This document shows positions 8,383-64,000 of a stretch of 64,000 nucleotides of DNA, in pieces (positions within the stretch are counted from its first letter, which is position 1; every line of letters begins with the position of its first letter). This DNA is from an uncultured Spirochaetaceae bacterium (GTDB lineage Bacteria > Spirochaetota > Spirochaetia > Treponematales > Treponemataceae): contig CACXCG010000039.1 of NCBI GenBank assembly GCA_902766125.1, forward strand, positions 5,674-69,673, given 5' to 3'. The notes below the pieces were generated by a model, which was not told the DNA's origin, did not search any database, and worked only from the letters and a program-made list of their open reading frames with translations. The translations under genes and the position numbers were made by a program.

Positions 8383-9585
8383 ATGGATGCAATCAGAACT
8401 TATCTTGAGTCAATGTTTGCTCAGCTGCCCAACACGGATGCCGTAAAAAAAGCAAAGGCTGAACTTTCTCAAATGATGGAAGACAAATATCTTGAACTGT
8501 GCAAGGAAGGCAAGTCTCAGAATGAAGCAGTGGGAACCGTTATTGCAGAATTCGGTAACCTTGATGAGATTGCAGACAGTCTGGGAATCGGACATGTGGT
8601 TCATGCAGAAAAGAAGCAGGAAGAGCGCAAAGTGTTAACACTGCAGCAGGTAAAAGATTTTCTTTCTGATGCAGGAAGAGCAGCTCACTGTACCGCACTG
8701 GGAGTTCTTCTGTGCATAACAAGTGTGGCTCCCCTGATTATTTTTACTGCATTTGAAGAAGAAGGATATTTAGGCGAGGCTATTGCATGTGCTCTGGGAG
8801 TAGCACTTCTGTTTGTGTTTATTGCTGCAGGAGTGGGTCTGTTTATCTTCTCCGGTTCAGTCAAAAGTCCCTGGAAGTTCCTGGACAGTGAATTGTGCAG
8901 TATAGATGTTTCCAGTGCAGAATACGTAAGCACTCAGAAAAATGCCTACCGCAGTACTTACAACATCGCTCTTACCGTTGGTGTTGTGCTATGCATTCTG
9001 TGCATTGTTCCTGTTTCTGTTGTCGGTGCACTTGAATTAGAAAGCGATTTACTGGTTACCATTATGGCATCGCTCATCTTTGTTATCTGCGGATTAGGTG
9101 TGTTCCTGCTTGTTTCAACATCAGGAAAAAATGCGTCATTCCAGAAGCTGCTTTCCCTCAACGATGTTACAACCGTAAGCGGTTCGTATGGAAAAGAAGC
9201 AAAGTACAGCAATAAGACAGTTGCGGCAATCATGAGCGTCTTCTGGCCGACAGTAACCGTTGTATACTTTATTGTTTCGTTTGCAACCCATTACTGGCAG
9301 TACACCTGGCTTATCTTTGTGGTAGGCGGAATTGTTTCGCTGTTGATTAAGAATCTGTGTACTCTCGAAGAAGGACAGGCTTCGTATTCAGCAAGTGGTA
9401 AAGAACCGGTACACTACACAAACAAAACAGTTGAAGAAATCATGGGTGTGTTCTGGCCGACGGTAACCTGTGTGTATCTTATCTGGAGCTTCCTTACGTT
9501 CCAGTGGCACATTACCTGGATTATCTGGCCGGTTGCAGCAATAGCTTCTATGCTCATGCGCAATATTTACGGAAAAGACAACTAA
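8383..9585 (+). CDS. Membrane protein with a PadR-associated DUF1700-type N-terminal domain and a duplicated C-terminal TM-hairpin module
   Basis: MDAIRTYLESMFAQLPNTDAVKKAKAELSQMMEDKYLEL...EAVGTVIAEFGNLDEIA is the typical DUF1700 N-terminus. It is followed by multiple TMs and an internal repeat at about 9205-9357 and 9415-9567. Confidence 0.75.
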   Translation: MDAIRTYLESMFAQLPNTDAVKKAKAELSQMMEDKYLELCKEGKSQNEAVGTVIAEFGNLDEIADSLGIGHVVHAEKKQEERKVLTLQQVKDFLSDAGRAAHCTALGVLLCITSVAPLIIFTAFEEEGYLGEAIACALGVALLFVFIAAGVGLFIFSGSVKSPWKFLDSELCSIDVSSAEYVSTQKNAYRSTYNIALTVGVVLCILCIVPVSVVGALELESDLLVTIMASLIFVICGLGVFLLVSTSGKNASFQKLLSLNDVTTVSGSYGKEAKYSNKTVAAIMSVFWPTVTVVYFIVSFATHYWQYTWLIFVVGGIVSLLIKNLCTLEEGQASYSASGKEPVHYTNKTVEEIMGVFWPTVTCVYLIWSFLTFQWHITWIIWPVAAIASMLMRNIYGKDN

Positions 9586-9607
9586 TTTTATTCTTAAGGA
9601 GAAAGAC

Positions 9608-10378
9608 ATGAAAAAGGTATTTTTGGGAATTTTAGGTGGAGTCACCATTTTATGTGTTGTGTTTGGTACGCTCTGGCATTTCGGTGCCTTTAGCGGCGGT
9701 AAAGCAAAGTTCAGCATGAACTTTCCTTTTTTTGGAGATAAGGGAATTGCCGGTGATTTTTCCGACACTCAGCTTTTGCCGCAGACTATGACAGAACTGT
9801 GTATCGATACTTCTGTTGCAAATCTTACGGTTCAGGTCGGATCGGTTAACAGTGTAGAAATGAAGTGGACACACGATTATCTGGAACCCACAGTAACCGT
9901 AGAAGGTTCAGTGGTACACATTGAACAGCAGAGAAAGCGTATTAATGCAAGCGGCAATAGTAAGTGTAGCATTACCGTAACAGTACCACCGCAGCTGTCT
10001 GTGGTAAAAATTGAAACAGATGTAGGAAATGTCGAGAGTGAAAATGTCAGTGCATCCAATGCAAAATTTGAAAGCGATGTCGGTAACGTAAGAATCGAAG
10101 GCGGAACCTTTACATCACTTATTGCAAAATCAGATACCGGTAATATCCGTGTTGAAGGTGCATCCTTTGATACCTGTACTGCAGATTCTGATGTAGGTAA
10201 TGTCCGCATAGAACTTCCTTCTGATGTTAACGGACAGGACTATTCTGTTTCGCTTAAGACAGATGTTGGTAACGTGCACGCCTTCGGTCAGTCGTACAAG
10301 CAGACTTTCACACAGAGTGTTCCCGGCGGAAAATTCATCAATGCTCAGAGTGATGTCGGTAATGTTAATGTAGAGTAA
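9608..10378 (+). CDS. DUF4097-type beta-helical 'putative adhesin' domain protein with an N-terminal TM anchor
   Basis: At least 6 repeats of [ST]D[VT]GN[VI] spaced about 20 aa apart, plus an N-terminal hydrophobic helix. It is the third gene of the classic PadR/DUF1700/DUF4097 trio. Confidence 0.75.
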   Translation: MKKVFLGILGGVTILCVVFGTLWHFGAFSGGKAKFSMNFPFFGDKGIAGDFSDTQLLPQTMTELCIDTSVANLTVQVGSVNSVEMKWTHDYLEPTVTVEGSVVHIEQQRKRINASGNSKCSITVTVPPQLSVVKIETDVGNVESENVSASNAKFESDVGNVRIEGGTFTSLIAKSDTGNIRVEGASFDTCTADSDVGNVRIELPSDVNGQDYSVSLKTDVGNVHAFGQSYKQTFTQSVPGGKFINAQSDVGNVNVE

Positions 10379-10415
10379 TTGCAGTTATAAAATGGATTGC
10401 GGTATGTGTTCGGTC

Positions 10416-11378
10416 TTAGTCTTCGAAACTTCCGCTTTCCATTTCTTCGCTGATCAGTTTCCAGCTTTCAAAACGTACGGGGCTGATGTTTCCTTCTTCA
10501 ACAGCTTTTTGAATTGCACAGCCTCTTTCCCCTTTGTGCGAACAGCTCATTCCAAATTCACACTTACCCAAATACGGCTTAAAATCCCTGAAGTACAGCG
10601 CAAGATTTTGTGCAGAAATATCATGCAGTAAAAAGCGACGGACACCCGGAGTGTCTATTATGTCAGCAGTTGAACCCTGCACACCGCCGGTAAGCGATTC
10701 GTTCAGGTTTATGTGCATGAGTGAACCTTTTGTCGTTGTGTGCGTACCGCGGCCGTACTTTTGCGAAAGACTTCCTGTTTTAAGAACAACCGTATTGTCC
10801 AGCACGTTTACAATGCTGCTTTTTCCAACACCGCTCTGACCAACCAGTGCCGACAGTTTGTCTTCCAGAAGTTCAGCAAGTTCCATCATACCTTCGCCCG
10901 TCTTTGCAGAAATGCGCAGAACCCGGTAGCCTATGCGTTCCCATTCAGAAAGCCGTTCCTGAAATGCTTCATCCTGAGAAGCGGCAACATCATACTTATT
11001 GCAGACAATTACCGGAGTAATGTTCTGGTATTCTGCCTGTGCAAGTGCGCGGTCAATAAAGCGCGGTCTGAACGGAGGATTGTCCGGGGTAGTTACAATC
11101 AACAGATAGTCAAGGTTTGCGGCAAGCAGCTGCGGCTGTCTTTTTTTGATGTTCCATCTGACAAATTCGTTTTTGCGGGGCACAATGTCTACAATCTGTG
11201 CTTTTTCTTCCTCTATGCTGTCATCGTCAAGAACAACAATATCGCCCGGCGCAAGGGGATTGTAGTATCCTTCGCTTGCCTTGAGGATTTTTCCCTTTAT
11301 GGAACAGGAGCGTATTATATCATCATCACATTCGACTTCGAAAATGTTTTTGCTACCGTTAAGTATAAGACCTTGCAT
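10416..11378 (-). CDS. rsgA: Ribosome small-subunit-dependent GTPase A
   Basis: Circularly permuted GTPase: the NKYD G4 motif comes before the GQSGVGKSS G1 motif. The C-terminal zinc knuckle is CEFGMSCSHKGERGCAI. Confidence 0.9.
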   Translation of the reverse strand: MQGLILNGSKNIFEVECDDDIIRSCSIKGKILKASEGYYNPLAPGDIVVLDDDSIEEEKAQIVDIVPRKNEFVRWNIKKRQPQLLAANLDYLLIVTTPDNPPFRPRFIDRALAQAEYQNITPVIVCNKYDVAASQDEAFQERLSEWERIGYRVLRISAKTGEGMMELAELLEDKLSALVGQSGVGKSSIVNVLDNTVVLKTGSLSQKYGRGTHTTTKGSLMHINLNESLTGGVQGSTADIIDTPGVRRFLLHDISAQNLALYFRDFKPYLGKCEFGMSCSHKGERGCAIQKAVEEGNISPVRFESWKLISEEMESGSFED

Positions 11379-11474: not shown

Positions 11475-11556
11475 GCGGGGATGGTGGAATTGGTAGACAC
11501 GCCAGCTTGAGGTGCTGGTGGCGAAAGCTGTGCCTGTTCAAGTCAGGTTCTCCGCA
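11475..11556 (+). tRNA. tRNA-Leu (anticodon GAG), type II with a long variable arm. No CCA is encoded.
   Basis: Hand-folded. Acceptor stem is GCGGGGA / TCTCCGC. Anticodon arm is CCAGC-TTGAGGT-GCTGG, with anticodon GAG at 11509-11511 and G37. T arm is GCCTG-TTCAAGT-CAGGT. Length is 82 nt. Confidence 0.9.
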
Positions 11557-11562
11557 CTTTTA

Positions 11563-53180: not shown

Positions 53181-54044
53181 ATGGCAGATATTTCGGCACA
53201 GATTACCCGCAAGTCGCTTAAGGCAAAAAAGCGCTCGGCAATAAAAAACGTAAAAGCTCAGGCAAAAGAAAAAATCCGCGAAATAAAGATAGAGTATGAT
53301 GAAAATCCCGCCCGCAAACTGTCGCGCCAGAATGAAAAGGCTCAGCGTAAGGCATACCGCATGCAGCGCCGTAATGCACACATTGCTTACAATGCACGTC
53401 AGCCCCGTCTGTATACCATTGGCGAAGAACTGTTTAATTCTATCAGTCACGGAATTGGAGCAGGCTTAAGTGTTGCCGCTCTTGTTATTCTGATTGTTGC
53501 ATCCTGCACAAGAGCTCCCGCTTCGTTACTGCCCGTGTACATTGTGGCTGTTTCTCTGTTTGGTTCAGCATTATTTTTGATGTACATGATGTCGACACTG
53601 TATCATGCGCTGACTCCGTATGGTGCACGCAAAGTGTTTTCTATTCTTAACCACATTTCAATCTATCTGCTTATTGCTGCAAGCTACACACCGTTTGCAC
53701 TGATTACTGTTGGCGGAAAGCTTGGCTGGTGGATTTTTGGAATTGCATGGGCCTTTGCATTAGTCTTTACTGTTTTGTATTCGGTATTCGGTGCCCGTAT
53801 GAGAATGCAGTCTGTGTTAACGTATGTCGTTGCAGGTTGGCTGTTTGTTCTTATTCCCACCGTGCTTAAAACTACACCGCTTTCATCAACCTGTCTTGCC
53901 TTTATTTTTAGCGGCGGAACAGCATATACCGTTGGCTGTCTGTTCTATCTGATGAGAAAATACAAGTGGACCCACACTATTTTCCATCTGTTTGTTCTTG
54001 CTGGCAGTGTCCTGCACTTCTTTGCAGTACTGTCGATTATTTAA
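53181..54044 (+). CDS. Hemolysin-III / PAQR-family 7-TM protein with a basic N-terminal extension
   Basis: [13 protein letters not shown]...STLYHAL...[17 protein letters not shown]...[12 protein letters not shown]. Confidence 0.85.
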
Positions 54045-54068: not shown

Positions 54069-57000
54069 TTGGTTTGTAAAAAAGTTTTTTGTATAAATAT
54101 CAGCGCAGGTAGACGTCTCTGTCTTTTGGTAAGTGCTCTTTGTGTCTGTCTTTTTGTTTCCTGTGCAAACCCCTTTAGCGCTGACATTCCTGTCCGTTCG
54201 CATACCGTTCGCTTTGAAGGAACTATTCCCTCTGGTGCCTGCCCTGAGCAGATAGCGCGCAGTCTTATGCAAATGCAGACTTTTCGTTCTGCGCTTCCCG
54301 GTTTTAATTTTACTGCTGGTGCAGAAGGTGCAGTCGAATACTTTGCCGTTGCTTCCCCTGATGACAACAGCGGAGACCTTGACGGTGTGTTTGACGATGC
54401 AGACAGACCTAACGTTTTTGGCATAGAACTTGATGTAGATAAAGTCTGGACAATTACCTGCGGAATACGGCTTCAGGAAGATCATGACGTTATCATCATG
54501 CAGGATCAGATAGAGAATGTTACGGTTTCTCTTGGCGATTCTATTTTTACGCATACGTTTACGATTGTTCCCGTTGAAGAAGGAACAGGTTCAATTGAAC
54601 TTGATATTGATAAAGATGCTTCTGCTGCTGCAGTTTCAAGTATCAGTGCAAAATTGATTTCAAGTGACGGTACAGAAAGAAACCTGTTTTCAAACATAAC
54701 ATACAAAACCAGTGTTCCAACCTTACCACAGTGGGCACGCATACATGTAGAAAATCTTGCTTCTGGTTCCTACGAACTGATCATCAATTTTCTTTCAGCA
54801 AGTTCGTTTCCTTTGTTTACGACAGTACAGACAGTAAATGTGTTTAACGGCTGCAGTACCGACACCTGGGTAAGCGACGGAACAGCACTCATAAGTTCCG
54901 ATGGTATGAAGATTACTTCTGCACTTATTTCTCAGGCTTCGCGCAACACCTATTATGTTGGCGTAACCGGTGCTGTTGGTGCAGATGGAAATGCAGTAAC
55001 TCCTTCATCAGAAAATTCCGGCTCTCCGTATGCTCCGCTCAATGCTGTTGCTAATGCAATAAACCGCATAAAATCATTTGGTAACGGTGGTGACTATACC
55101 ATTTATATTTCTGGAACTGTTGCTGAAGCCGACATACAGATTCCTTCAGCCCTTAACCTGCAAAAAGCCTCGTCTATAACTATCTGCGGACTGCATGGAA
55201 AAGAAGAGGATGCAATAGATGCAGAACGCGATGGACGCTGCCTTAATATATCAACTGAAGTTCCGGTAATTATACGTGACTTAAAGATTACTAACGGATA
55301 TGTCCTCAATGAAGATGGTGCCGGAATCTATATGGGTTCAGAAACAGATGTAACGCTTGCAAGCGGTGCGTGGATAACGGGTAACAAAGCAGAAGGCAAT
55401 AATTCTGATGCAAGGGGCGGTGGTATATTCTGTTCCGGCGGAACGCTTACGCTTAAGTCGGGAAGTGTTGTCGGTTCTCCTGATGCAAACCGATATGCAC
55501 AATACGAGACCGGCAAGTGGGCCAACTATGCAGGAAGTGGCGGCGGTATTGCATTTGATTCCGGTACGGTTACGGTAGAACGCGGTGCAAAAGTTTCGTA
55601 TAATTTTGCAACATGGGGTGGAGGAATTTGTTGTCACAGCCGTGAAGGAATAACACTCGCCCGGGTTTTAAATATCAGCGGCGGTGAGATTTCTTACAAT
55701 GCTACCAGTCCAAGAGCAAATAAAGGACAGGCGGGAGAAAATAGAGATTACGGATGGTATTCATACGGCGGCGGATTATTTGTGTTCGAGTCAACGCTTA
55801 ACTTTACTTCGGGAACCATACATGACAATTACAGTTCTGACGGCGGCGGTGCAATTTTTGTGCAGGAAACGTCGAGCGCATTTATGTCCGGCGGTAGCAT
55901 ATACAACAATGCTTCGTATATGGGTCCCAATTTTAGTATGGATACTGCTGAAACCTGTAAAAAATGTGCAGAAATTCTTTTGTTTGATAACTGTACCTTT
56001 ACCATGACAGGCGGAACTCTTTCCTGCGATACTCAAGAAGAACGTGCAGTCTATTACAATGAAAGTGCAACCCCTATCAACTTTAAACTTGGCGGAGATG
56101 CAGTTATAAGTGAAAACTGTACCGTCTGTCTTAACGATTCAAAACCGCTAACAATCATCAGTAATCTTACTTCAACAGAATATGAAGAACATCCTGTTGT
56201 TATTGATGTTGACGGCGAAACTCATGGAGATGTTCTTGTTGTCTCTGATCCTGAAGCAGATATAAGTGCATACAAAGACTACTTTGTGCTTTCCGATTCG
56301 CTTATTGATCAGGATGATGAACTTAAACTTTCTGGCGACAAGAAAAAGCTGTTCCTTAACATACCCATCTGGGTTGCAGCAACAGAAGGAAGTTATGCTC
56401 CCTGTTCAAGAGCAGGAAATGATGGTAATGGAAAAGGAACAAAAGTAGAACCGTTTGCATCGCTTGCACGTGCTCGTGACTGGGTTATAGATAACGGCGA
56501 CTTGGAATGGACAATAAAAGTTGCAGGTGTGCTTACTGCTCCACAGGAAATAACAGACGCAGGTGATAATGCTGCAGCCATTTACATAGTCGGTGCAAAC
56601 GCACCTGATACAAATGGAAATCCGGTTGACGGCATTTGCACCGAAGCAGGAACTGCACTTTCTATTCCCGATGATTCAAACGATGGTCTTAAGGTTTATA
56701 TCAATAACCTAAAGATTACCGGAAAAAATGCAGAGCGTGGCGGCGGTTTGTGCATAGGATACGGCGCTAGTGGAGAGGATGAAAATCTTATAACCCTTAC
56801 GCTTGGTGACGGTGCGCTTGTAACCGGCTGTACTGCAACGATGTCTGGTGGCGGTGTGTATATTAAAAAGAGCACGCTGTATGTGACCGGGAATGCGCGT
56901 ATTACAGACTGTCAGGTAACAACAATAGATGAAGAAAATCAGCTTAGCTATTGTGGCGGCGGAATTTATGATTCTGATTCTACCGTGTATATACAGGATG

Positions 57001-59768
57001 ATGCTATTGTAAGCGGAAATAAATCAACTGGCAGGGCCGGTGGAATTCTTACAACAGGTAGTCTTTTTATAAGCGGTAATGCATGTATCGGGGAACGTTC
57101 AGGAACAGCCGCGACTTCAAAAGATTACAGCAGTAACAGTGCCCTAATCGGAGGCGGTATTTATGCCTTCAATTCTGGTGCAACTGTCTGGATTGGTTAC
57201 ACTGCACAAAATGTTTCTGATCCGGATGCAACCTGTACTATTTCCTATAACTATGCGACTGGAAATGATGAAGATACATACGGCGGCGGCGGTATTGCTG
57301 TTAGCGCTAGTGCCAAATGTTACATGGCTTCTGGTTCCATTGAACATAACGGATCTGCAAGTTACGGCGGCGGACTGTATATGGCAGAAACCCAGGGAAA
57401 ATTCTATTTCAGCGGCGGAACAATAAAATCTAACGCAGCAGCTTTGTACGGTGGCGGTATCTGTTCAAGGAACGGTACCTGTTATATGTACGGCACTGCA
57501 ACTGTAGGCGGTTCTGAGTCTGCAGATAAAAATACTGCAGCTAATGGCGGCGGAGTTGCCCTAATTCTTAACGGCAATCTGTTTATGGGCAGAAAAGATA
57601 ATGATGTTCAAATTGCTTTTACTGGCGGCGTAATCGGAAACCAGGCAAGTGAATATGGCGGCGGTGTTTATGTTTCTCAAGGCAATTTAAACATGTACCG
57701 AGGAACTCTTTCTTCAAATTCAGCACCCATTGGAGCCGGTATACGGCTTGTAAGTGACAGTGGAGCAAAAGCGCTTTTAAAAGGCGGAACCATCAGCGGC
57801 AATAACAACACAAACACTGATTTTGCAGGCGGTGCAGTCTGCTCTGCCGGTTCGTTAACGTTATCGGGAAGTATTTCAATTCCGTACGGAAACGGTAAAG
57901 GTAAAAATGATGTGTCCTATATATCGGAACGACTTCCTCAGATAGGTGAGTTTACAAATGTGACTTCCGGACAAAAGGTTGTAACCCTTGCTCCCCCGGT
58001 ATATCAGCGGAAATTAGAGGCAGTTGAACCGCAGACAGGGCTGGAATATGCTCAGTTTGAAGAAGCGGTTTCGCATATAGCAGTTGCATCTGATGGTGAC
58101 GGAAACGGATGGGAAATTTATTACTACAGCAATACCGGTAAGGCAAAACTGCAGCCTGCAGGATGGACTCCTCAGACAGCATATTATGTTTCATCAACAG
58201 GAACTACAGGCGGTTCTGGTACACAGACTTCTCCGGTTGATTCGATTTCAACTGCAATTGGTTTAATTGTTGATCAGGATTACAAAACTAACTACACCAT
58301 TTACATTGACGGAACCATAAGTTCTGCACAGACTGTTTCCAGTACCCTCACAACAGATTATGCTGCAATGCTTACGATAGCCGGTACAAACAGCGGCTGT
58401 ATAGATTTGAACGGAGCAAACGGAACTGCGCTTTCTGTAACAGGTACATCGGTTCCGGTTACCATCAGGACGCTTACCCTTAAGCGTGCAGGTAACAGTT
58501 CAAATTGTGCGGACAACGGCGGCGGTCTGTATGTAGAGGATGCAGACGTAACGCTGGGTAATGGCGGTTCCAGCGGTGAGGTTAATATAACCGGAAACTA
58601 TGCTCAGTATGGCGGCGGTGTGTATTCTACCGGAACGCTTACCATTACAAGCTATGTAACCATAAGCGGAAATACTGCGCTTGGTTCAGCTGGCGGTTTG
58701 TTTGCTGGCGGAACGGTAAATATGAAAGCTGGTGAGATCCGCAATAATACCGGTACATATGGCGTTTATGTTCCGTCAACCGGCATTTTTACAATGAGCG
58801 GCGGATCTATCGGTAATAACTCAAGTAGTGAAGTTTATGTTTATAACGGAAGGTTTAAGCTGAAAGATTCTGCATATATTTATGGCGGAGCACTGGAACT
58901 GCCAAATCTTGATACGATTACTATTGCAGGAAAACTGGATCTTCCGTCAGCGGCAAACGGTCTTGCTGCAAAAATTAAATTTCAGTCTTATGTTGAAAAC
59001 ACACAGGTTCTTGTACTTGAATCAAACCCAGATCCTTCTACATCAATTGGTGACGAATACTATAAATTCCGGTTATGGGATGATGCTTATAAAATCAATA
59101 GTACCGGATATATCGAAGAAGCTATTGTTGAACAATCCTGCGGAACACTTGATGAAATAGTTACTGCCATCAATTCTATGTCTCCGGGAGATAAACTGGT
59201 TATTACCCTGACAGCTAATATAACTGCAAGTACAACAAGCGAATCAACTCCGGCTCTTTCAATACCGTCTAATGCAAACGTTGTATTAAAGGCTGCTTCA
59301 GAAAAGAAAATTACCTTCCCTAATTCCAGTGACTTGGGTTTCGGTGATTATAATTTTATTAAGGTAGAACGCGGTGCAAAGCTGACCTTAGAAAGCGGTA
59401 TTACGCTGCAGGGTGCATCTTATGGTAATGCATGTGTACACCCTGTTTATGTAGATAACGGTGCAGAACTTGTTATGGAAACAGGATCAAAAATTACTGG
59501 TTTCTATAATAACGGAAATGGAGGAGTGTACGTAAATAGAGGTACATTTACTATGAATGGCGGTACGCTCTCTTATGGTAAGGCAAGGTATGGTTTTGCA
59601 GTTTATCTTGTAAATGGAACATTTAACTTTAATGACGGTACTATAACAGATTTTTATTGCATAAGTTCTTCTTATGGCTACTGGATAGACGGCAGCGGTA
59701 CTATGAACTCTAGGGTATCAGTGAGCTCTGGAATTGTAAGTCCCGATTTAACATATAATCAAAACTGA
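54069..59768 (+). CDS. Giant (1899-aa) lipoprotein made of four tandem right-handed parallel beta-helix modules with Pmp-type GG[AG][ILV] repeats
   Basis: A TTG start lies 6 nt after GGGGAGAG. The lipobox is LFVSC. There are about 20 motifs such as YGGGLF, RGGGIF, SGGGVY, NGGGLY and SAGGLF. There is no C-terminal beta-barrel domain. Confidence 0.8.
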   Translation: MVCKKVFCINISAGRRLCLLVSALCVCLFVSCANPFSADIPVRSHTVRFEGTIPSGACPEQIARSLMQMQTFRSALPGFNFTAGAEGAVEYFAVASPDDNSGDLDGVFDDADRPNVFGIELDVDKVWTITCGIRLQEDHDVIIMQDQIENVTVSLGDSIFTHTFTIVPVEEGTGSIELDIDKDASAAAVSSISAKLISSDGTERNLFSNITYKTSVPTLPQWARIHVENLASGSYELIINFLSASSFPLFTTVQTVNVFNGCSTDTWVSDGTALISSDGMKITSALISQASRNTYYVGVTGAVGADGNAVTPSSENSGSPYAPLNAVANAINRIKSFGNGGDYTIYISGTVAEADIQIPSALNLQKASSITICGLHGKEEDAIDAERDGRCLNISTEVPVIIRDLKITNGYVLNEDGAGIYMGSETDVTLASGAWITGNKAEGNNSDARGGGIFCSGGTLTLKSGSVVGSPDANRYAQYETGKWANYAGSGGGIAFDSGTVTVERGAKVSYNFATWGGGICCHSREGITLARVLNISGGEISYNATSPRANKGQAGENRDYGWYSYGGGLFVFESTLNFTSGTIHDNYSSDGGGAIFVQETSSAFMSGGSIYNNASYMGPNFSMDTAETCKKCAEILLFDNCTFTMTGGTLSCDTQEERAVYYNESATPINFKLGGDAVISENCTVCLNDSKPLTIISNLTSTEYEEHPVVIDVDGETHGDVLVVSDPEADISAYKDYFVLSDSLIDQDDELKLSGDKKKLFLNIPIWVAATEGSYAPCSRAGNDGNGKGTKVEPFASLARARDWVIDNGDLEWTIKVAGVLTAPQEITDAGDNAAAIYIVGANAPDTNGNPVDGICTEAGTALSIPDDSNDGLKVYINNLKITGKNAERGGGLCIGYGASGEDENLITLTLGDGALVTGCTATMSGGGVYIKKSTLYVTGNARITDCQVTTIDEENQLSYCGGGIYDSDSTVYIQDDAIVSGNKSTGRAGGILTTGSLFISGNACIGERSGTAATSKDYSSNSALIGGGIYAFNSGATVWIGYTAQNVSDPDATCTISYNYATGNDEDTYGGGGIAVSASAKCYMASGSIEHNGSASYGGGLYMAETQGKFYFSGGTIKSNAAALYGGGICSRNGTCYMYGTATVGGSESADKNTAANGGGVALILNGNLFMGRKDNDVQIAFTGGVIGNQASEYGGGVYVSQGNLNMYRGTLSSNSAPIGAGIRLVSDSGAKALLKGGTISGNNNTNTDFAGGAVCSAGSLTLSGSISIPYGNGKGKNDVSYISERLPQIGEFTNVTSGQKVVTLAPPVYQRKLEAVEPQTGLEYAQFEEAVSHIAVASDGDGNGWEIYYYSNTGKAKLQPAGWTPQTAYYVSSTGTTGGSGTQTSPVDSISTAIGLIVDQDYKTNYTIYIDGTISSAQTVSSTLTTDYAAMLTIAGTNSGCIDLNGANGTALSVTGTSVPVTIRTLTLKRAGNSSNCADNGGGLYVEDADVTLGNGGSSGEVNITGNYAQYGGGVYSTGTLTITSYVTISGNTALGSAGGLFAGGTVNMKAGEIRNNTGTYGVYVPSTGIFTMSGGSIGNNSSSEVYVYNGRFKLKDSAYIYGGALELPNLDTITIAGKLDLPSAANGLAAKIKFQSYVENTQVLVLESNPDPSTSIGDEYYKFRLWDDAYKINSTGYIEEAIVEQSCGTLDEIVTAINSMSPGDKLVITLTANITASTTSESTPALSIPSNANVVLKAASEKKITFPNSSDLGFGDYNFIKVERGAKLTLESGITLQGASYGNACVHPVYVDNGAELVMETGSKITGFYNNGNGGVYVNRGTFTMNGGTLSYGKARYGFAVYLVNGTFNFNDGTITDFYCISSSYGYWIDGSGTMNSRVSVSSGIVSPDLTYNQN

Positions 59769-59802: not shown

Positions 59803-59838
59803 AAAAAAAAAGAGGAACTCGTGTGAGTTCCTCTTTTC
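59803..59838. terminator. Bidirectional Rho-independent terminator shared by convergent genes
   Basis: An A9 run, the stem AGAGGAACTC / GAGTTCCTCT with loop GTGT, then a T4 run. Confidence 0.8.
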
Positions 59839-59853
59839 TGTCTTTCGTATGTG

Positions 59854-61215
59854 TCAGAAACTTCCGCCGCCTAAGGTTGCGGTCAGTTTAAACGATACGT
59901 CAGGGTTTGTAGAAAACGACTGCCAGGTAAAGTAGGGGCCTGCAGAAACAGAAATGTTTTTTACCGGATTGTATGAAAGACTTGCAGAAGCAATGACTGA
60001 ATACGGCATAAAAGCTATTCCGTTTGTTGCAAGGGTAAGGTAGCTGTTACTTGCGCTTGCATTGCTCATGTCAACAGCATCTTTGTTAAAGTAGAACAGC
60101 CCCATAAGGTTTGCAGAAAGTTTTTCTGTTCCTACTTTAGAAAACAGTACGGTCAGTGCAAGGTTGTTTCCGTATGATAAATACTGATGATCATCTTTGT
60201 TGCTGTCAAACAGATACTGAGCCATTACGGTTATCTGCGGATCTTTCCAGGTGTATGATGTACCAGCAGTTGCCTGAACGGTAAAGGTTTTATCTTCCCA
60301 GCTGTCTGCGTCTGCACTCCATTCTGTCTGAGTTCCGTACTGTAATACGGTTTCGCAAAAGACTGCAACTTTTCCGCTAAAGAGGCTTCCGCTTGCGGTA
60401 AACATTACTTTTGGTGCAGTCTGATATTTGTACAGTGCTCCGGCTCCCAGTTCCCAGCCACCGACAACAAATTCACCTTTTGCAGCAAGAGCAGTGTCCC
60501 GTGCGTTTCCGCTTGAAGCAGGAACGATGTATGCCCACAGACAGTTTTGTGTTCCAGGGAATACAATCTGTGCGCGAAGGTTAAGGGCTCCGTTTACCTG
60601 TGCAGTCGGATTTTCAGGATCAACTGCAGAAGAGTTTATCATGTCGCTTACGGGACTGAAGAAGTAGCCGGTTCCCCATGAGACAGTGTGCTGTCCAAAA
60701 CGGAAGAACACTCTGTCTGCAACAGAAAAGTCTGTAAACAGTTCCTTTACATAGAACGTTCCGAAAGAACCTAGAGGGATGTAGGGGATTGAAAACATTC
60801 CCAATGGAATTTCCGGAATTGCAACTGCCTGCTGATACGGATACTTCCAGCCAAACTTAGTGTACAAACGTAAGTTCTGAGTGGGACGTGCATCTACATA
60901 CAACAGTGCATCTGCAGTCGGAGTGAGTGTTGATGAATAGATGTTGTCTCCCAGTGATGTGTCCGAACTGTCAGCCACATACAGAGGAACTATAAGCCCC
61001 AGAGAAGTGTCAATAGAACCGCCTAACTTTACGCTTCCGTTTTCAAACAGAACGCCGTGCTTTAAGTCGCTTGAACTGCTGCTGTTTTCTGAAGTGGTAA
61101 CTACTACATCATCTGCAAACAGATCATCATCAAAGAAAAAATCATCGTCACTCTGTGCACAGACGGCAACAATGCTCATCAATGCACACAGCGCGCTTAG
61201 GCAAAGTTTTTTCAT
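59854..61215 (-). CDS. Predicted outer-membrane beta-barrel protein, family unknown
   Basis: The signal peptide is MKKLCLSALCALMSIVAVCAQS, followed by an acidic/aromatic linker DDDFFFDDDLFADD. An alternating amphipathic pattern runs throughout. The C-terminus ends ...LTATLGGGSF with a terminal Phe. Confidence 0.65.
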   Translation of the reverse strand: MKKLCLSALCALMSIVAVCAQSDDDFFFDDDLFADDVVVTTSENSSSSSDLKHGVLFENGSVKLGGSIDTSLGLIVPLYVADSSDTSLGDNIYSSTLTPTADALLYVDARPTQNLRLYTKFGWKYPYQQAVAIPEIPLGMFSIPYIPLGSFGTFYVKELFTDFSVADRVFFRFGQHTVSWGTGYFFSPVSDMINSSAVDPENPTAQVNGALNLRAQIVFPGTQNCLWAYIVPASSGNARDTALAAKGEFVVGGWELGAGALYKYQTAPKVMFTASGSLFSGKVAVFCETVLQYGTQTEWSADADSWEDKTFTVQATAGTSYTWKDPQITVMAQYLFDSNKDDHQYLSYGNNLALTVLFSKVGTEKLSANLMGLFYFNKDAVDMSNASASNSYLTLATNGIAFMPYSVIASASLSYNPVKNISVSAGPYFTWQSFSTNPDVSFKLTATLGGGSF

Positions 61216-61982
61216 CAGTTCAATCCCTCAAGATATGCCTTGGTAAAAATGGTATCTGGCAGGCGGTCAAAGGTCAGATCAGAAATCATCTGCTGAGTTG
61301 TTTCGCCCGGATTCAGTTCATCGCGCAAAATAATCTGTGTGGGAACATAGCCTGCGGGAACTTTTGCCCATTTGGGATACAGTGTGGTACGCATAAGGCG
61401 TCCTGAGCCGGAATAATCTTCCTGCTTCAAAACAAGAGCAATGTCTTTGCGAATGTAATAGGTTGTGCGTGCATACGAAGGTTTTGATGTTTTTGCTTCA
61501 AGTGTAATGATGTATACAGCCTGTTTACCCAACATACCTTCTTCAAAAGAAGCAACTGTATAGTTGTCTCTCCAGTGAGTGTCACTTTGATTTAAGTCGT
61601 CAAGATTTACATCAGAGTCGCCTACTGCTTCTTTGAGTGAAGTGTGCGTAAACTTGCGTCCAATCGGATCGTATGCCCAGATGTTGTCTCCGTCGCGCAG
61701 ATAACCCTTACCTTTGTCTGCTTCAGGAAGCAGTTGAACCATAGTCATTAAATCGCTGTCGGTTCTTTCGAAAATTTTAAACCTAAGGCTTTCGTCTGGT
61801 TCACCCGGTTTTTGAATCAGGAGCGAAACTGTTGCAGAATAGTCGCCGTGATAGGCAAGAACTTTATCCGCAGCTTCCATTGTTTTGAATGCTTGTTCTG
61901 CGGTAGCGGCACTAACGCTTTGTGCAATTGCAGCAGTGCAGAGGGTGAGTGCAAGACCTAATGAAAGTAAAAGTTTTTTCAT
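61215..61982 (-). CDS. LolA-like 'outer-membrane lipoprotein-sorting' family protein (periplasmic)
   Basis: The signal peptide is MKKLLLSLGLALTLCTAAIAQS. DYSATVSLLIQKPGEPDESLRFKIFER...LLPEADKGKGYLRDGDNIWAYDPIGRKFTHTS...GDSDVNLDDL matches my recollection of the LolA_like family pattern. Its stop overlaps the OMP start (TGATG). Confidence 0.65.
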   Translation of the reverse strand: MKKLLLSLGLALTLCTAAIAQSVSAATAEQAFKTMEAADKVLAYHGDYSATVSLLIQKPGEPDESLRFKIFERTDSDLMTMVQLLPEADKGKGYLRDGDNIWAYDPIGRKFTHTSLKEAVGDSDVNLDDLNQSDTHWRDNYTVASFEEGMLGKQAVYIITLEAKTSKPSYARTTYYIRKDIALVLKQEDYSGSGRLMRTTLYPKWAKVPAGYVPTQIILRDELNPGETTQQMISDLTFDRLPDTIFTKAYLEGLN

Positions 61983-62037
61983 GTTGCTTCTCCTAAAAAT
62001 ATATTCCATAAATGAAAACACACAAAAGGTGTTTCTG

Positions 62038-63381
62038 TTACTTAATAGTACGCAAAGCTTGAGCTGGTGTCATTTTTGCAGCTTTTTTAGCACTTCCTCG
62101 TACTGCCAATGCGGTAAGCACAATCAGCAGAATGTACTGGGCAATAATTGCTCCTGCTGACAGTTTATAGCTTATGTGACCGTTACGTAAGAAGAACGAA
62201 ACTGCTTCGTTTTTAATAGTGAAGGTTCCCAAAATAGACATAACTACAAGTGCAAGAATTAAACCTGCAATTGCTCCTATAATACACAGAATAACTGCTT
62301 CTGTTGTAAAGAGTCTGCCAGCTGCTTTTCCCTGCATGCCTAATGCGCGCATGGTTCCCACTTCACGAATGCGTTCGTACAGAATCATGCGGTAGGTGTT
62401 TGAAATGCCTACCATAACAATCAGCAGAATGACAATCAGGATGATGTATGTTACCAGATGAACAATAGTCATAACCTGCTGCAGCTGAGGAACTTCATCG
62501 TCAAAGGTTTCAACGCCGTACTTTACGCCTTCCCACTGCTGTTCGCGGGCCGTAAGCTGTTTTTCAAGTGCAGTACCCGGGTTTGTCGGATTTGCTGCAA
62601 TGGCTTCCATGCGGTTAGTAACAGGAACTCCATCTTCACGGATGCGTTCTTCAATTGCATCTGCAACTGCTGCTGACTCTCGTTCGTTCTTTAAGTAGAT
62701 GGTAAAGGTGTCGTATCCGCCCTGGGGAATTTCAATCAGTTCGTTAAGCGATTCAATGTCAACGTAAGCAATTAAACCGCTCATAAAACTGTTTCCCTTG
62801 ATGATGGCAGAAACGGTAAATTCACCGACAGTGTTCTGGCCGTAGATGGTTGATGTAGTAAACAGAACTGTGTCTCCGGGAACAATGTTGAGCGTGTCTG
62901 CCATGGTTTCACTTACGATAATGTTTTTGGGTTTAGCAAAGTTTTCTTTTGAACCTGAAACTATCTGGAGTGAATCGAGCAGGTCTTTGTCGTTTATAAG
63001 ATCGCGTCCTGTTACATTTGCAAGTGCTTTCTTTCCGTTGAACAGAATGGTACCGCTCATCATGGAATACTGAGAAAGTGTTTCGTAGTTAATATGCAAA
63101 TCTTCTACAACGTTGCGAATGTAGTCGTGGTCACGAATGATGTTAACCAACTGACCTTTGTCTTTTTCGTTTTCAGGTGGAAGTTTTTCCAAACCCTGAA
63201 TTAGTACTGTTCCCCCTACCAACTGGGTAAGCTGTCTGCGCAAATTTTCTACTGCTCCAGAAGCAAGACCGTCAATTGCGGTTACGACAAAAAATCCGAA
63301 TGCAATTGCAATGGCAAGAATAACACTGCGCCTTTTTTGACGCGTTAAGTTTCTTAGTGCAAGTGTAATAATTTCTTTCAT
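62038..63381 (-). CDS. FtsX/MacB/LolC-type ABC transporter permease (TM1, large periplasmic domain, TM2-4)
   Basis: The N-terminus is LALRNLTRQKRRSVILAIAIAFGFFVV. The C-terminus is REVGTMRALGMQ...AAKMTPAQALRTIK. Confidence 0.85.
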   Translation of the reverse strand: MKEIITLALRNLTRQKRRSVILAIAIAFGFFVVTAIDGLASGAVENLRRQLTQLVGGTVLIQGLEKLPPENEKDKGQLVNIIRDHDYIRNVVEDLHINYETLSQYSMMSGTILFNGKKALANVTGRDLINDKDLLDSLQIVSGSKENFAKPKNIIVSETMADTLNIVPGDTVLFTTSTIYGQNTVGEFTVSAIIKGNSFMSGLIAYVDIESLNELIEIPQGGYDTFTIYLKNERESAAVADAIEERIREDGVPVTNRMEAIAANPTNPGTALEKQLTAREQQWEGVKYGVETFDDEVPQLQQVMTIVHLVTYIILIVILLIVMVGISNTYRMILYERIREVGTMRALGMQGKAAGRLFTTEAVILCIIGAIAGLILALVVMSILGTFTIKNEAVSFFLRNGHISYKLSAGAIIAQYILLIVLTALAVRGSAKKAAKMTPAQALRTIK

Positions 63382-63393
63382 CTTTTGCTCTCC

Positions 63394-64000
63394 TTAGTCT
63401 GCGCCCTTAGAAAGAGCTTTGAGCGGTGTAATTTTGAGTGCAGAACTTACGGGATAGAGATTGCTTAAGAATCCGCCTATAGCCGTAATGATGATGGTAG
63501 CAATAATAATACCTGGTGTGATTATAAATCTAAGCTGACCGCCACCCAAAATAATTTTTGCAATGCTGTTAGTTATGGTTATGTTGAATGCGTTGAAAAT
63601 AACAGCCGCTATTGCTGCAATAACCGTTCCTATAAATGCTGAACCTATAGTCATAAGCAGTGCCTCTGTAAAGAACAACTTGCGCACAAAAGATTTTTCA
63701 GCCCCTAGTGCACGCATAGTTCCTATTTCTGATGTTCGTTCGATAACAGAAACAGTCATTGTGTTCATAATGATAATGAATACAACTACTGCAAGAATAA
63801 TGACTAAAATGTTAAAGAGAATTCCAATTCCTTCTACCGAACTGGTGTAGGAAATTGCTCCATTTTCCCAGTTCATTGCAACTGCATTTATGCCTTCTTC
63901 TTCAAACCATGCATTGTATTCTGCAACAATTTTGTCTGCTTCGGACGGGTGTTGCACTTTTCCAAGAATAAAGTGCCAAGCTCCCTCGTCTGTTTTGTTC
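63394..64000 (-). CDS. Second FtsX/MacB/LolC-type ABC permease. The 5' end lies beyond the right edge.
   Basis: SEIGTMRALGAEKSF...ALKITPLKALSKG. I translated the frame upstream of the ORF-track GTG (63957) and it stays open to base 64000. Confidence 0.8.
   Translation of the reverse strand, partial: NKTDEGAWHFILGKVQHPSEADKIVAEYNAWFEEEGINAVAMNWENGAISYTSSVEGIGILFNILVIILAVVVFIIIMNTMTVSVIERTSEIGTMRALGAEKSFVRKLFFTEALLMTIGSAFIGTVIAAIAAVIFNAFNITITNSIAKIILGGGQLRFIITPGIIIATIIITAIGGFLSNLYPVSSALKITPLKALSKGAD

Follow-up and report, generated by a model that had tools for sequence, protein, structure and literature searches.

Bacteria with two membranes need machines that move greasy molecules across the periplasm, and few of these are understood, namely Lol, Lpt, Mla and their relatives. 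A candidate for another lies at the end of a 64,000-nucleotide (nt) stretch of DNA (hereafter the window) from an uncultured Spirochaetaceae bacterium (contig CACXCG010000039.1, positions 5,674 to 69,673). The window carries the distal four genes of a five-gene operon, which encodes in order an ATP-binding cassette (ABC) ATPase, permease A, permease B, a carrier with a LolA fold and an outer-membrane barrel. These proteins probably form an autonomous ATP-driven route across the whole envelope for hydrophobic, most likely lipid-like, cargo. A familiar engine of the MacB/LolCDE type and a LolA-fold carrier are joined here to an unnamed family of outer-membrane barrels. In the literature searched, whose coverage is incomplete, neither the module (a PF17131 carrier, an FtsX-type ABC transporter and a barrel) nor the barrel family has a description or a functional study.

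The Lol pathway of Escherichia coli resembles the module in its one ATPase, two unlike FtsX-type permeases with large periplasmic domains, soluble LolA-fold carrier and outer-membrane acceptor, all in one operon. However, no protein of the window reaches a Lol equivalog cut-off, and the carrier belongs to PF17131 rather than to canonical LolA. The acceptor differs as well. In place of the LolB lipoprotein there is an integral barrel, modelled with 18 strands and bearing a signal of the signal-peptidase-I type, in agreement with the first-pass annotation of the window, which had read a barrel in this position. Relatives of the module also coexist with a full Lol pathway in E. coli and Burkholderia. 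Because LolB is absent and the Lol scores are sub-threshold, the module is not a member of the Lol pathway.

The closest published description is from another spirochaete. In the Borrelia lp38 cluster BBJ23-BBJ29, a type VII ABC transporter made up of an ATPase and an FtsX permease is joined by an outer-membrane barrel and a protein with the LolA fold, and the cluster is proposed to extract non-polar ligands or lipoproteins and deliver them to the outer membrane (Nixon et al., 2026; PMC13078400). In contrast to the operon described here, the Borrelia cluster has one permease, forming a homodimer, an Omp85-like barrel and two tetratricopeptide repeat proteins, for which the cassette has no genes. 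BBJ28 has no PF17131 match and is paired with the carrier at a BLASTP E of 2.1, the hidden Markov model of the barrel family scores -1.2 against BBJ25 and BBJ29, and the ATPases are 29 % identical. Given these carrier and barrel scores, orthology with the Borrelia cluster was rejected, and the two are analogous only.

That a LolA-like chaperone can serve a lipid route of its own to the outer membrane has a published example in the aryl-polyene cluster of E. coli CFT073, in which ApeL/ApeM/ApeN move the specialised lipid of a cluster resembling fatty acid synthase (FAS) (PMC8253772). The Ape engine is a resistance-nodulation-division (RND) transporter and not an ABC transporter, and its outer-membrane partner is a LolB-like DUF3261 protein instead of a barrel. 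MacAB-TolC shares with the module the FtsX-type transmembrane (TM) bundle, the MacB periplasmic core domain and the class of its ATPase. Here, however, the ATPase is unfused, the permeases would form a heterodimer and the carrier is soluble. The lack of a MacA-type adaptor and of a TolC-type duct speaks against a tripartite efflux pump.

Two further comparisons concern logic or shape. Lpt (LptB2FG-LptC-LptA-LptDE) follows a similar logic, with a single ATPase for two unlike permeases, a protein that shields the lipid in the periplasm and a barrel that lets it out at the surface, but there is no homology: FtsX is not LptF/G, the LolA fold is not a beta-jellyroll bridge, and 18 strands stand against the 26 of LptD with its LptE plug. 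OprD/Occ channels and AlgE resemble the barrel in their predicted 18 strands, overall shape (TM-score 0.45-0.63) and a long, candidate inward-folding loop after strand 5. They differ from it in sequence family, and the barrel has in addition an acidic periplasmic N-terminal extension and a genetic tie to an ABC transporter and a carrier.

All genes of the operon lie on the minus strand. Permease A is present in the window as its C-terminal 202 codons, the region of the FtsX four-helix bundle, which run off the edge (63394-64000). After a gap of 12 nt follows permease B (62038-63381, 447 amino acids (aa)), and after a further 55 nt the carrier (61215-61982, 255 aa), which begins at an ATG; a GTG farther upstream, at 62021, is passed over by gene callers. 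The stop codon of the carrier overlaps the start of the barrel gene (59854-61215, 453 aa) in a TGATG that can be read directly at 61213-61217, and this overlap points to translational coupling of the two. The open reading frames, order, gaps and overlap given by the first-pass annotation were all reproduced in their coordinates. Its expectation that the cognate ATPase would lie just beyond base 64000 was also borne out, on three near-identical metagenome contigs that encode permease B identically and extend upstream.

On one of these contigs (L001), which shows 23 differences from the window over 11,963 overlapping bases (99.8 % identity), a 279-aa ABC ATPase (L001:7615-8454, about 64928-65767 in window-equivalent positions) ends 1 nt ahead of permease A. 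The complete permease A has 510 aa (L001:8456-9988, with its start at about 64926). The 129-nt intergenic region upstream of the ATPase contains a TTGACT-17-TATTAT element, a putative promoter judging by its sequence, and an AAGGAG ribosome-binding site. The best family names for the ATPase are LolD, DarD, FtsE and MacB, all under cut-off; LolD (TIGR02211) scores highest, yet with 185 bits it stays below the required 307.75. The closest solved relative in the Protein Data Bank (PDB) is MJ0796. A basic insertion of about 35 aa (..DGRWASDPKDKKKRRTSIPSKLDKRITGLRR..) follows the Walker A region and splits the ABC_tran match into two stretches. This insertion may vary, since the tblastn span is about 70 nt shorter at loci L024, L035 and L038.

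The permeases had been called FtsX/MacB-type, and Pfam supports the call. FtsX is found in permease B (E 4e-14, 53 bits) and in the fragment of permease A (E 4e-17), and permease B also matches MacB_PCD (E 2e-10, 41.9 bits against a cut-off of 27), giving it a MacB-like periplasmic core domain together with the FtsX TM bundle. By hydropathy, both permeases consist of TM1, a periplasmic domain of 270-330 aa and then three TM helices; in permease A, TM1 spans residues 20-38, the periplasmic domain has about 330 aa and the three helices fall within 369-483. PDB sequence matches of both proteins are restricted to the FtsX/TM bundle and comprise YtrF, MacB, LolF and LolE/C. Neither is a LolC/E equivalog, as TIGR02212 (lolCE) gives 57.5 bits for permease B and 48.9 bits for permease A against a cut-off of 362. 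The features of a type VII ABC transporter, namely an FtsX four-helix TM domain, a large periplasmic domain between TM1 and TM2 and an ATPase of the MacB/LolD/FtsE class, are all found in this engine.

The carrier matches LolA_like PF17131 with an E of 5.8e-35 (121 bits, cut-off 30). It aligns end to end, over residues 27-254, with NE2245 (3buu), a solved protein of the LolA superfamily (E 2.5e-17). Against canonical LolA (TIGR00547) it scores 16.8 bits, far below the cut-off of 112, and E. coli LolA chains are matched at an E of about 0.1 only. The proposal of a LolA-like fold outside canonical LolA therefore holds in both its parts. Homologues of the carrier (about 65) have a signal peptide ending in ..FAQ(V/A)S and no conserved Cys, which indicates a soluble periplasmic protein processed by signal peptidase I, and not a lipoprotein.

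The 453-aa protein begins with MKKLCLSALCALMSIVAVCAQ and ends in ...TLGGGSF. It has no family in Pfam or NCBIfam, and no Pfam match was obtained for it or for 43 homologues at an E of up to 1. The label DUF5723, which one source gives to the Treponema bryantii member, was not reproduced by the Pfam search. An AlphaFold2 model based on the 43-sequence alignment predicts 18 strands over residues 61-452, with a predicted local distance difference test score (pLDDT) of 78 and a predicted TM-score (pTM) of 0.72, so that the earlier reading of a beta-barrel is sustained. Foldseek neighbours are generic 16-18-strand channels (DcaP, MOMP, AlgE and Occ/OprD; TM-score 0.45-0.57), while Omp85, FadL and TolC are absent among the 50 structural matches listed. 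A C-terminal F is found in 119 of 124 family members. Periplasmic turns have 2-7 residues, whereas the outer loops L1, L2 and L8 are long and show 10-25 % identity. Short turns and variable long outer loops are typical of an outer-membrane protein.

Loop L3 (residues 177-209, TVSWGTGYFFSPVSDMINSSAVDPENPTAQVNG, at 60589-60687) is the signature of the family. Its mean identity of 76 % matches that of the best-conserved strands, and its motif G-K/Q-x4-G-x-(Y/F)F-x-SP-x-D aligns with proteobacterial relatives. L3 probably folds into the lumen, like the constriction loop of porins. The N-terminal extension (residues 21-60, DDDFFFDDDLFADD..., at 61036-61155) is acidic, predicted to be disordered and periplasmic. 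Model confidence falls below a pLDDT of 50 at residues 18-46. Even so, F27, D29, F33 and D36 are near-invariant in the 43 homologues, and acidic residues make up a family median of 29 %. The extension could possibly serve as a docking segment. An acidic 'D-x-LFG' pattern, sought in it by regular expression, does not discriminate, given its high background rate (81/125 vs 115/124). In a second metagenome sample, the barrel gene (L002:8667-9896, corresponding to window 59854-61215) carries an in-frame deletion of 44 aa. The protein loses residues 32-75, and with them a portion of the acidic extension and nearly all of strand 1, but is otherwise unchanged in its amino acids. The deletion may reflect genuine variation, decay of the gene or an error of assembly.

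A scan of one genome per species yielded 80 loci, nearly all from Treponema/Treponemataceae of rumen and gut, including two T. bryantii genomes, and these were compared with the window proteins by tblastn. Where at least 5.3 kb of upstream flank was available, the compact collinear five-gene cassette is present at 56 of 58 loci; the remaining two also have the five genes, but differ by a 3.2-kb insertion in one and an inversion in the other. At 66 of 71 loci, no more than 400 nt separate the barrel gene from a carrier gene on its upstream side. Collinearity of five genes at 56 of 58 loci is far beyond chance. Together, these observations cover the four computational points at which, by the first-pass annotation, its proposal could fail, namely an upstream ATPase, a beta-barrel, a LolA-like fold and co-conservation of the cassette, and each of them turned out in its favour. 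No gene family outside the five is common to more than 15 of the 80 loci, which argues that the module is self-contained. The same five-gene order surrounds distant barrel relatives of 568 and 643 aa on other spirochaete-like contigs, one of which has a gene for the flagellar-sheath protein FlaA. At two loci (L042 and L078), a barrel-family gene is found with no PF17131 gene in the 1.3-2.3 kb of upstream sequence available; these may be solitary paralogues or rearranged copies.

The five proteins evolve at different rates. Median identity to the window is 75 % for the ATPase, 68 % for the carrier, 56-57 % for the permeases and 45 % for the barrel. In the closest relative (L030:2562-8538, compared with window 59854-64000), the ATPase, permeases and carrier are 92-96 % identical and the barrel 69 %. 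With the lowest identities, the barrel is the fastest-evolving member, as expected of a surface-exposed protein. The contrast in this relative and the variation in L1, L2 and L8 suggest, at the level of sequence, diversifying pressure from phage, host immunity or competitors.

The module is also found outside spirochaetes. A tblastn search of plasmid and chromid records with the carrier recovered proteobacterial PF17131 genes annotated as 'outer membrane lipoprotein-sorting protein'. In E. coli O157:H7, Aliiroseovarius, Burkholderia gladioli and Paraburkholderia, these come after genes for an ABC ATPase and an FtsX permease and are followed by one for a hypothetical protein of 404-480 aa. On plasmid p1 of B. 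thailandensis (L093:5755-10856) the order is rearranged: PF17131 leads, the ATPase comes second, the two permeases are fused into one protein of 832 aa, and a barrel of 380 aa stands last. Histidine kinase and response regulator genes adjoin the module in three unrelated lineages: a spirochaete-like contig (L089:1207-3407), Aliiroseovarius (L086:2879-3655 and 9285-11311) and B. gladioli (L094:1792-3566). This hints at signal-controlled expression of the module; none adjoins the cassette of the window.

The trailing proteins of these proteobacterial loci were compared with a broadened barrel profile built from 125 diverse representatives of the family, with reversed or shuffled decoys as control. 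Scores reached 63 bits for B. thailandensis, the best proteobacterial value, 36 for B. gladioli, 27 for Aliiroseovarius, 24 for E. coli and 7 for Paraburkholderia, as against -1.4 or lower for the decoys. All 36 members of the E. coli family scored above all 72 decoys. Alignment of the spirochaete and E. coli barrel families by hhalign gave a probability of 97.3 % (E 7e-11, 389 columns) and superimposed the L3 signature. Modelled independently, the E. coli barrel (pLDDT 86, pTM 0.82) has 18 predicted strands and a long loop after strand 5, and its structural neighbours are of the same class (16-18-strand channels). The family, which unites the spirochaete 453-aa type with proteobacterial members of 380-480 aa, is marked by 18 predicted strands, the L3 motif, usually a C-terminal aromatic residue, and genes that adjoin those for PF17131 and for an exporter of the inner membrane. 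Alpha-, beta- and gamma-Proteobacteria all have examples of the trio of PF17131, barrel and FtsX-ABC. We conclude that one unnamed barrel family is a regular partner of PF17131 and FtsX-ABC systems in at least four bacterial classes.

The surroundings of the E. coli module bear on its cargo. In E. coli O157:H7 EDL933 (L091, NZ_CP124742.1, 147880-162673), the module lies between ycdU and dgcT, in a cluster with genes for a holo-acyl carrier protein (ACP) synthase (acpS), a ketoreductase-type short-chain dehydrogenase/reductase, a FabZ-type dehydratase, an ACP, two ketosynthases and a malonyl-transferase. With such neighbours, the module has the appearance of an exporter that belongs to the cluster and handles its acyl or polyketide product. 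The cluster, which resembles a type II FAS or polyketide synthase (PKS), also includes a gene of the aminomethyltransferase family and is adjacent to a two-partner secretion pair. No functional study of the island, which we take to be O-island 47, was found in the literature searched.

The first-pass annotation had seen in the operon a MacB-like mechanotransmission machine and leaned towards a lipoprotein cargo. The architecture it described, a type VII ABC transporter with a LolA-fold carrier and a barrel, is upheld, but the lean towards lipoproteins is weakened on two grounds. One is that a homologous module lies in the FAS/PKS-type cluster of E. coli, an organism with a full Lol pathway. 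The other is that PF17131 proteins elsewhere partner lipid-type exporters of the RND/MMPL kind. In T. pallidum, the PF17131 namesake TP0789 appears to adjoin the RND pump TP0790 (PMC8407342). An assignment of TP0786-0788 as an FtsX system beside TP0789 proved wrong, as TP0784-6 are modelled as LptC/A/B and TP0790 as the RND pump. In Porphyromonas gingivalis, an operon encoding an MMPL protein, a lipoprotein-sorting-type protein and a hypothetical protein (HMPREF1322_RS06000-06015) is among the genes most induced by haem limitation (PMC10470040). As the literature on P. gingivalis and T. pallidum shows, PF17131-type genes paired with RND/MMPL exporters likewise have a trailing 'hypothetical protein'. 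By analogy with such systems, the cargo is more likely to be a lipid, a glycolipid or a molecule of the polyketide type than a lipoprotein. The same analogy favours PF17131 as a general periplasmic carrier that would serve inner-membrane exporters.

A mechanism in four steps can be drawn by analogy with the type VII ABC mechanotransmission of LolCDE and MacB. ATP hydrolysis would drive the periplasmic domains of a permease A/B heterodimer to lift an acylated or otherwise hydrophobic molecule from the outer leaflet of the inner membrane. The molecule would then be loaded into the hydrophobic cavity of the PF17131 carrier. After diffusing to the outer membrane, the carrier would dock on the barrel, possibly via the conserved acidic N-terminal extension. 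Finally the barrel, through its lumenal loop L3, would insert the cargo or release it at the cell surface.

Several points weigh against this reading of the operon as an outward route for lipid-like cargo. No cargo or biosynthetic gene travels with the cassette in Treponema. The lipid is accordingly borrowed from the distant E. coli relative, since the Treponema cassette has no linked biosynthetic genes. That transport runs outward is an assumption taken from the way in which type VII ABC transporters are known to work, and the barrel could be a channel instead of an insertase. Confidence in the barrel model is just moderate at its pLDDT of 78. Homology between the spirochaete and proteobacterial barrels depends on one broadened profile and on matching predicted folds. 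Against that profile the E. coli barrel has only its 24 bits, and a narrow Treponema profile (A1) detects no similarity in the trailing proteins of E. coli and Aliiroseovarius.

On its downstream side, the operon converges on a gene for an 1899-aa protein (54069-59768, plus strand) with a lipobox-like LFVSC and many GGG(I/V/L) repeats. The two share a terminator, as had been noted before: in the 85-nt gap ahead of the convergent gene, a hairpin at 59808-59837 has a 9-bp G+C-rich stem (GAGGAACTC/GAGTTCCTC), for which the terminator scan counts 13 pairs, including 5 G-C pairs. An A-run precedes the hairpin and a T-run follows it, so that it can serve both genes as a bidirectional intrinsic terminator. 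The tie to this lipoprotein that the first-pass annotation implied did not survive comparison, since tblastn detected no homologue of the giant protein in the 80 related loci. In the closest relative (L030), an HlyIII gene comes directly after the barrel gene, and the HlyIII gene of the window (53181-54044) lies on the far side of the giant gene. The latter therefore appears to be a lineage-specific insertion between the barrel and HlyIII genes, and was rejected as a functional partner of the operon. The shared terminator is a consequence of position and no evidence of partnership. The giant protein itself has no Pfam or NCBIfam match, and the only structural hint is a weak match to a pectate lyase (7xks, E 0.04).

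Upstream, beyond the 129-nt region ahead of the ATPase, a divergent open reading frame of 175 aa (L001:6958-7485) starts with a signal peptide and weakly resembles OMP_b-brl (E 0.002). It possibly encodes a small 8-strand outer-membrane protein, and is conserved beside the cassette in none of the 80 related loci. Across the entire 64-kb window, an Rfam scan found no family reaching its gathering score, and a single tRNA-Leu (GAG) is present at 11475-11557 (plus strand).

Other explanations of the operon differ in what is moved and in which direction. It may be a second, specialised Lol-type lipoprotein pathway in which the permease pair would extract some of the lipoproteins for PF17131 to carry, while the barrel replaces LolB and perhaps flips lipoproteins to the spirochaete surface. 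Two unlike permeases with one ATPase do mirror LolC/LolE/LolD, NCBIfam ranks lolCE and LolD highest among its names, the fold of the carrier is that of LolA, and a large predicted lipoprotein gene is adjacent in the window. An analogous Borrelia cluster is, moreover, proposed to move lipoproteins (PMC13078400). Spirochaetes have no LolB according to published accounts, which also describe surface lipoproteins as unaffected by depletion of the Borrelia LolA (BB0346). Yet such a pathway is unlikely. The equivalog scores are far under cut-off (57 of 362 bits for lolCE, 185 of 308 for LolD and 17 of 112 for lolA), the giant lipoprotein is absent from 80/80 related loci, and no lipoprotein gene is conserved beside the cassette in these 80 loci. 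Homologous modules also occur in E. coli and Burkholderia, both with a complete LolABCDE, and that of E. coli sits inside the FAS/PKS-like cluster. Still less probable is a MacAB-like pump for efflux or detoxification of antibiotics, peptides or toxins with the barrel as exit duct, although MacB_PCD and FtsX domains are present, the ATPase is near those of MacB, bacteriocin and darobactin exporters, and the barrels structurally resemble the substrate channels Occ/OprD and AlgE. Neither a MacA/HlyD adaptor nor a TolC-type duct occurs in the cassette at any locus or as a conserved neighbour (L001, L087, L089 and the 80 loci). PF02321 (OEP) gives no significant match to the barrel family, its hits being confined to 4 of 43 members with a best E of 0.04. 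None of the known tripartite pumps includes a soluble LolA-fold carrier, and an 18-strand barrel has no periplasmic tunnel with which to bridge the gap.

Transport could also run inwards, following the logic of Mla: the barrel would admit a long-chain fatty acid, haem or sterol, PF17131 would ferry it inward and the ABC transporter would place it in the inner membrane. An outside supply of fatty acids is required by many treponemes, the P. gingivalis operon with MMPL and lipoprotein-sorting-type proteins responds to haem limitation, and the barrel resembles uptake channels of the Occ/OprD type. However, the established structural work on MacB and LolCDE presents type VII ABC transporters as having no transmembrane substrate path and as extractors or exporters only. 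The E. coli module is moreover in a biosynthetic and not a catabolic cluster, and Pfam reveals no importer features of the substrate-binding-protein type, so uptake seems a poor prospect. That the barrel is an unrelated porin which happens to share the operon, with no envelope-spanning machine at all, is very improbable indeed. Its structural neighbours are generic porins and channels, but the barrel family stands beside PF17131 and FtsX-ABC in four classes despite divergence near the detection limit, and the overlap of its start codon with the carrier stop suggests that the two genes are translationally coupled. An outward route for lipid-like cargo is therefore retained as the preferred explanation.

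Two broader proposals can be set beside it. The operon might be the missing route for spirochaete surface lipoproteins, in which the FtsX pair extracts, PF17131 carries and the barrel acts as translocon or flippase; this is a long shot. More probable, though a little short of an even chance, is that the module represents a third general class of ATP-driven lipid-to-surface pathway beside Lpt and Lol, spread across phyla and so far unnamed.

Since E. coli O157, Burkholderia and a marine alphaproteobacterium have the module too, it is general and testable and not a peculiarity of spirochaetes. It also offers genetically tractable hosts in which the cargo may be found, above all the E. coli island with its module in a lipid/polyketide cluster. 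If the protein trailing the PF17131 gene of T. pallidum belongs to the barrel family, it would be a new outer-membrane protein candidate in that species. For spirochaetes in general, the gain is a new outer-membrane protein that evolves fast and is probably exposed at the surface, together with a candidate route by which their unusual outer membrane, free of lipopolysaccharide, may be built.

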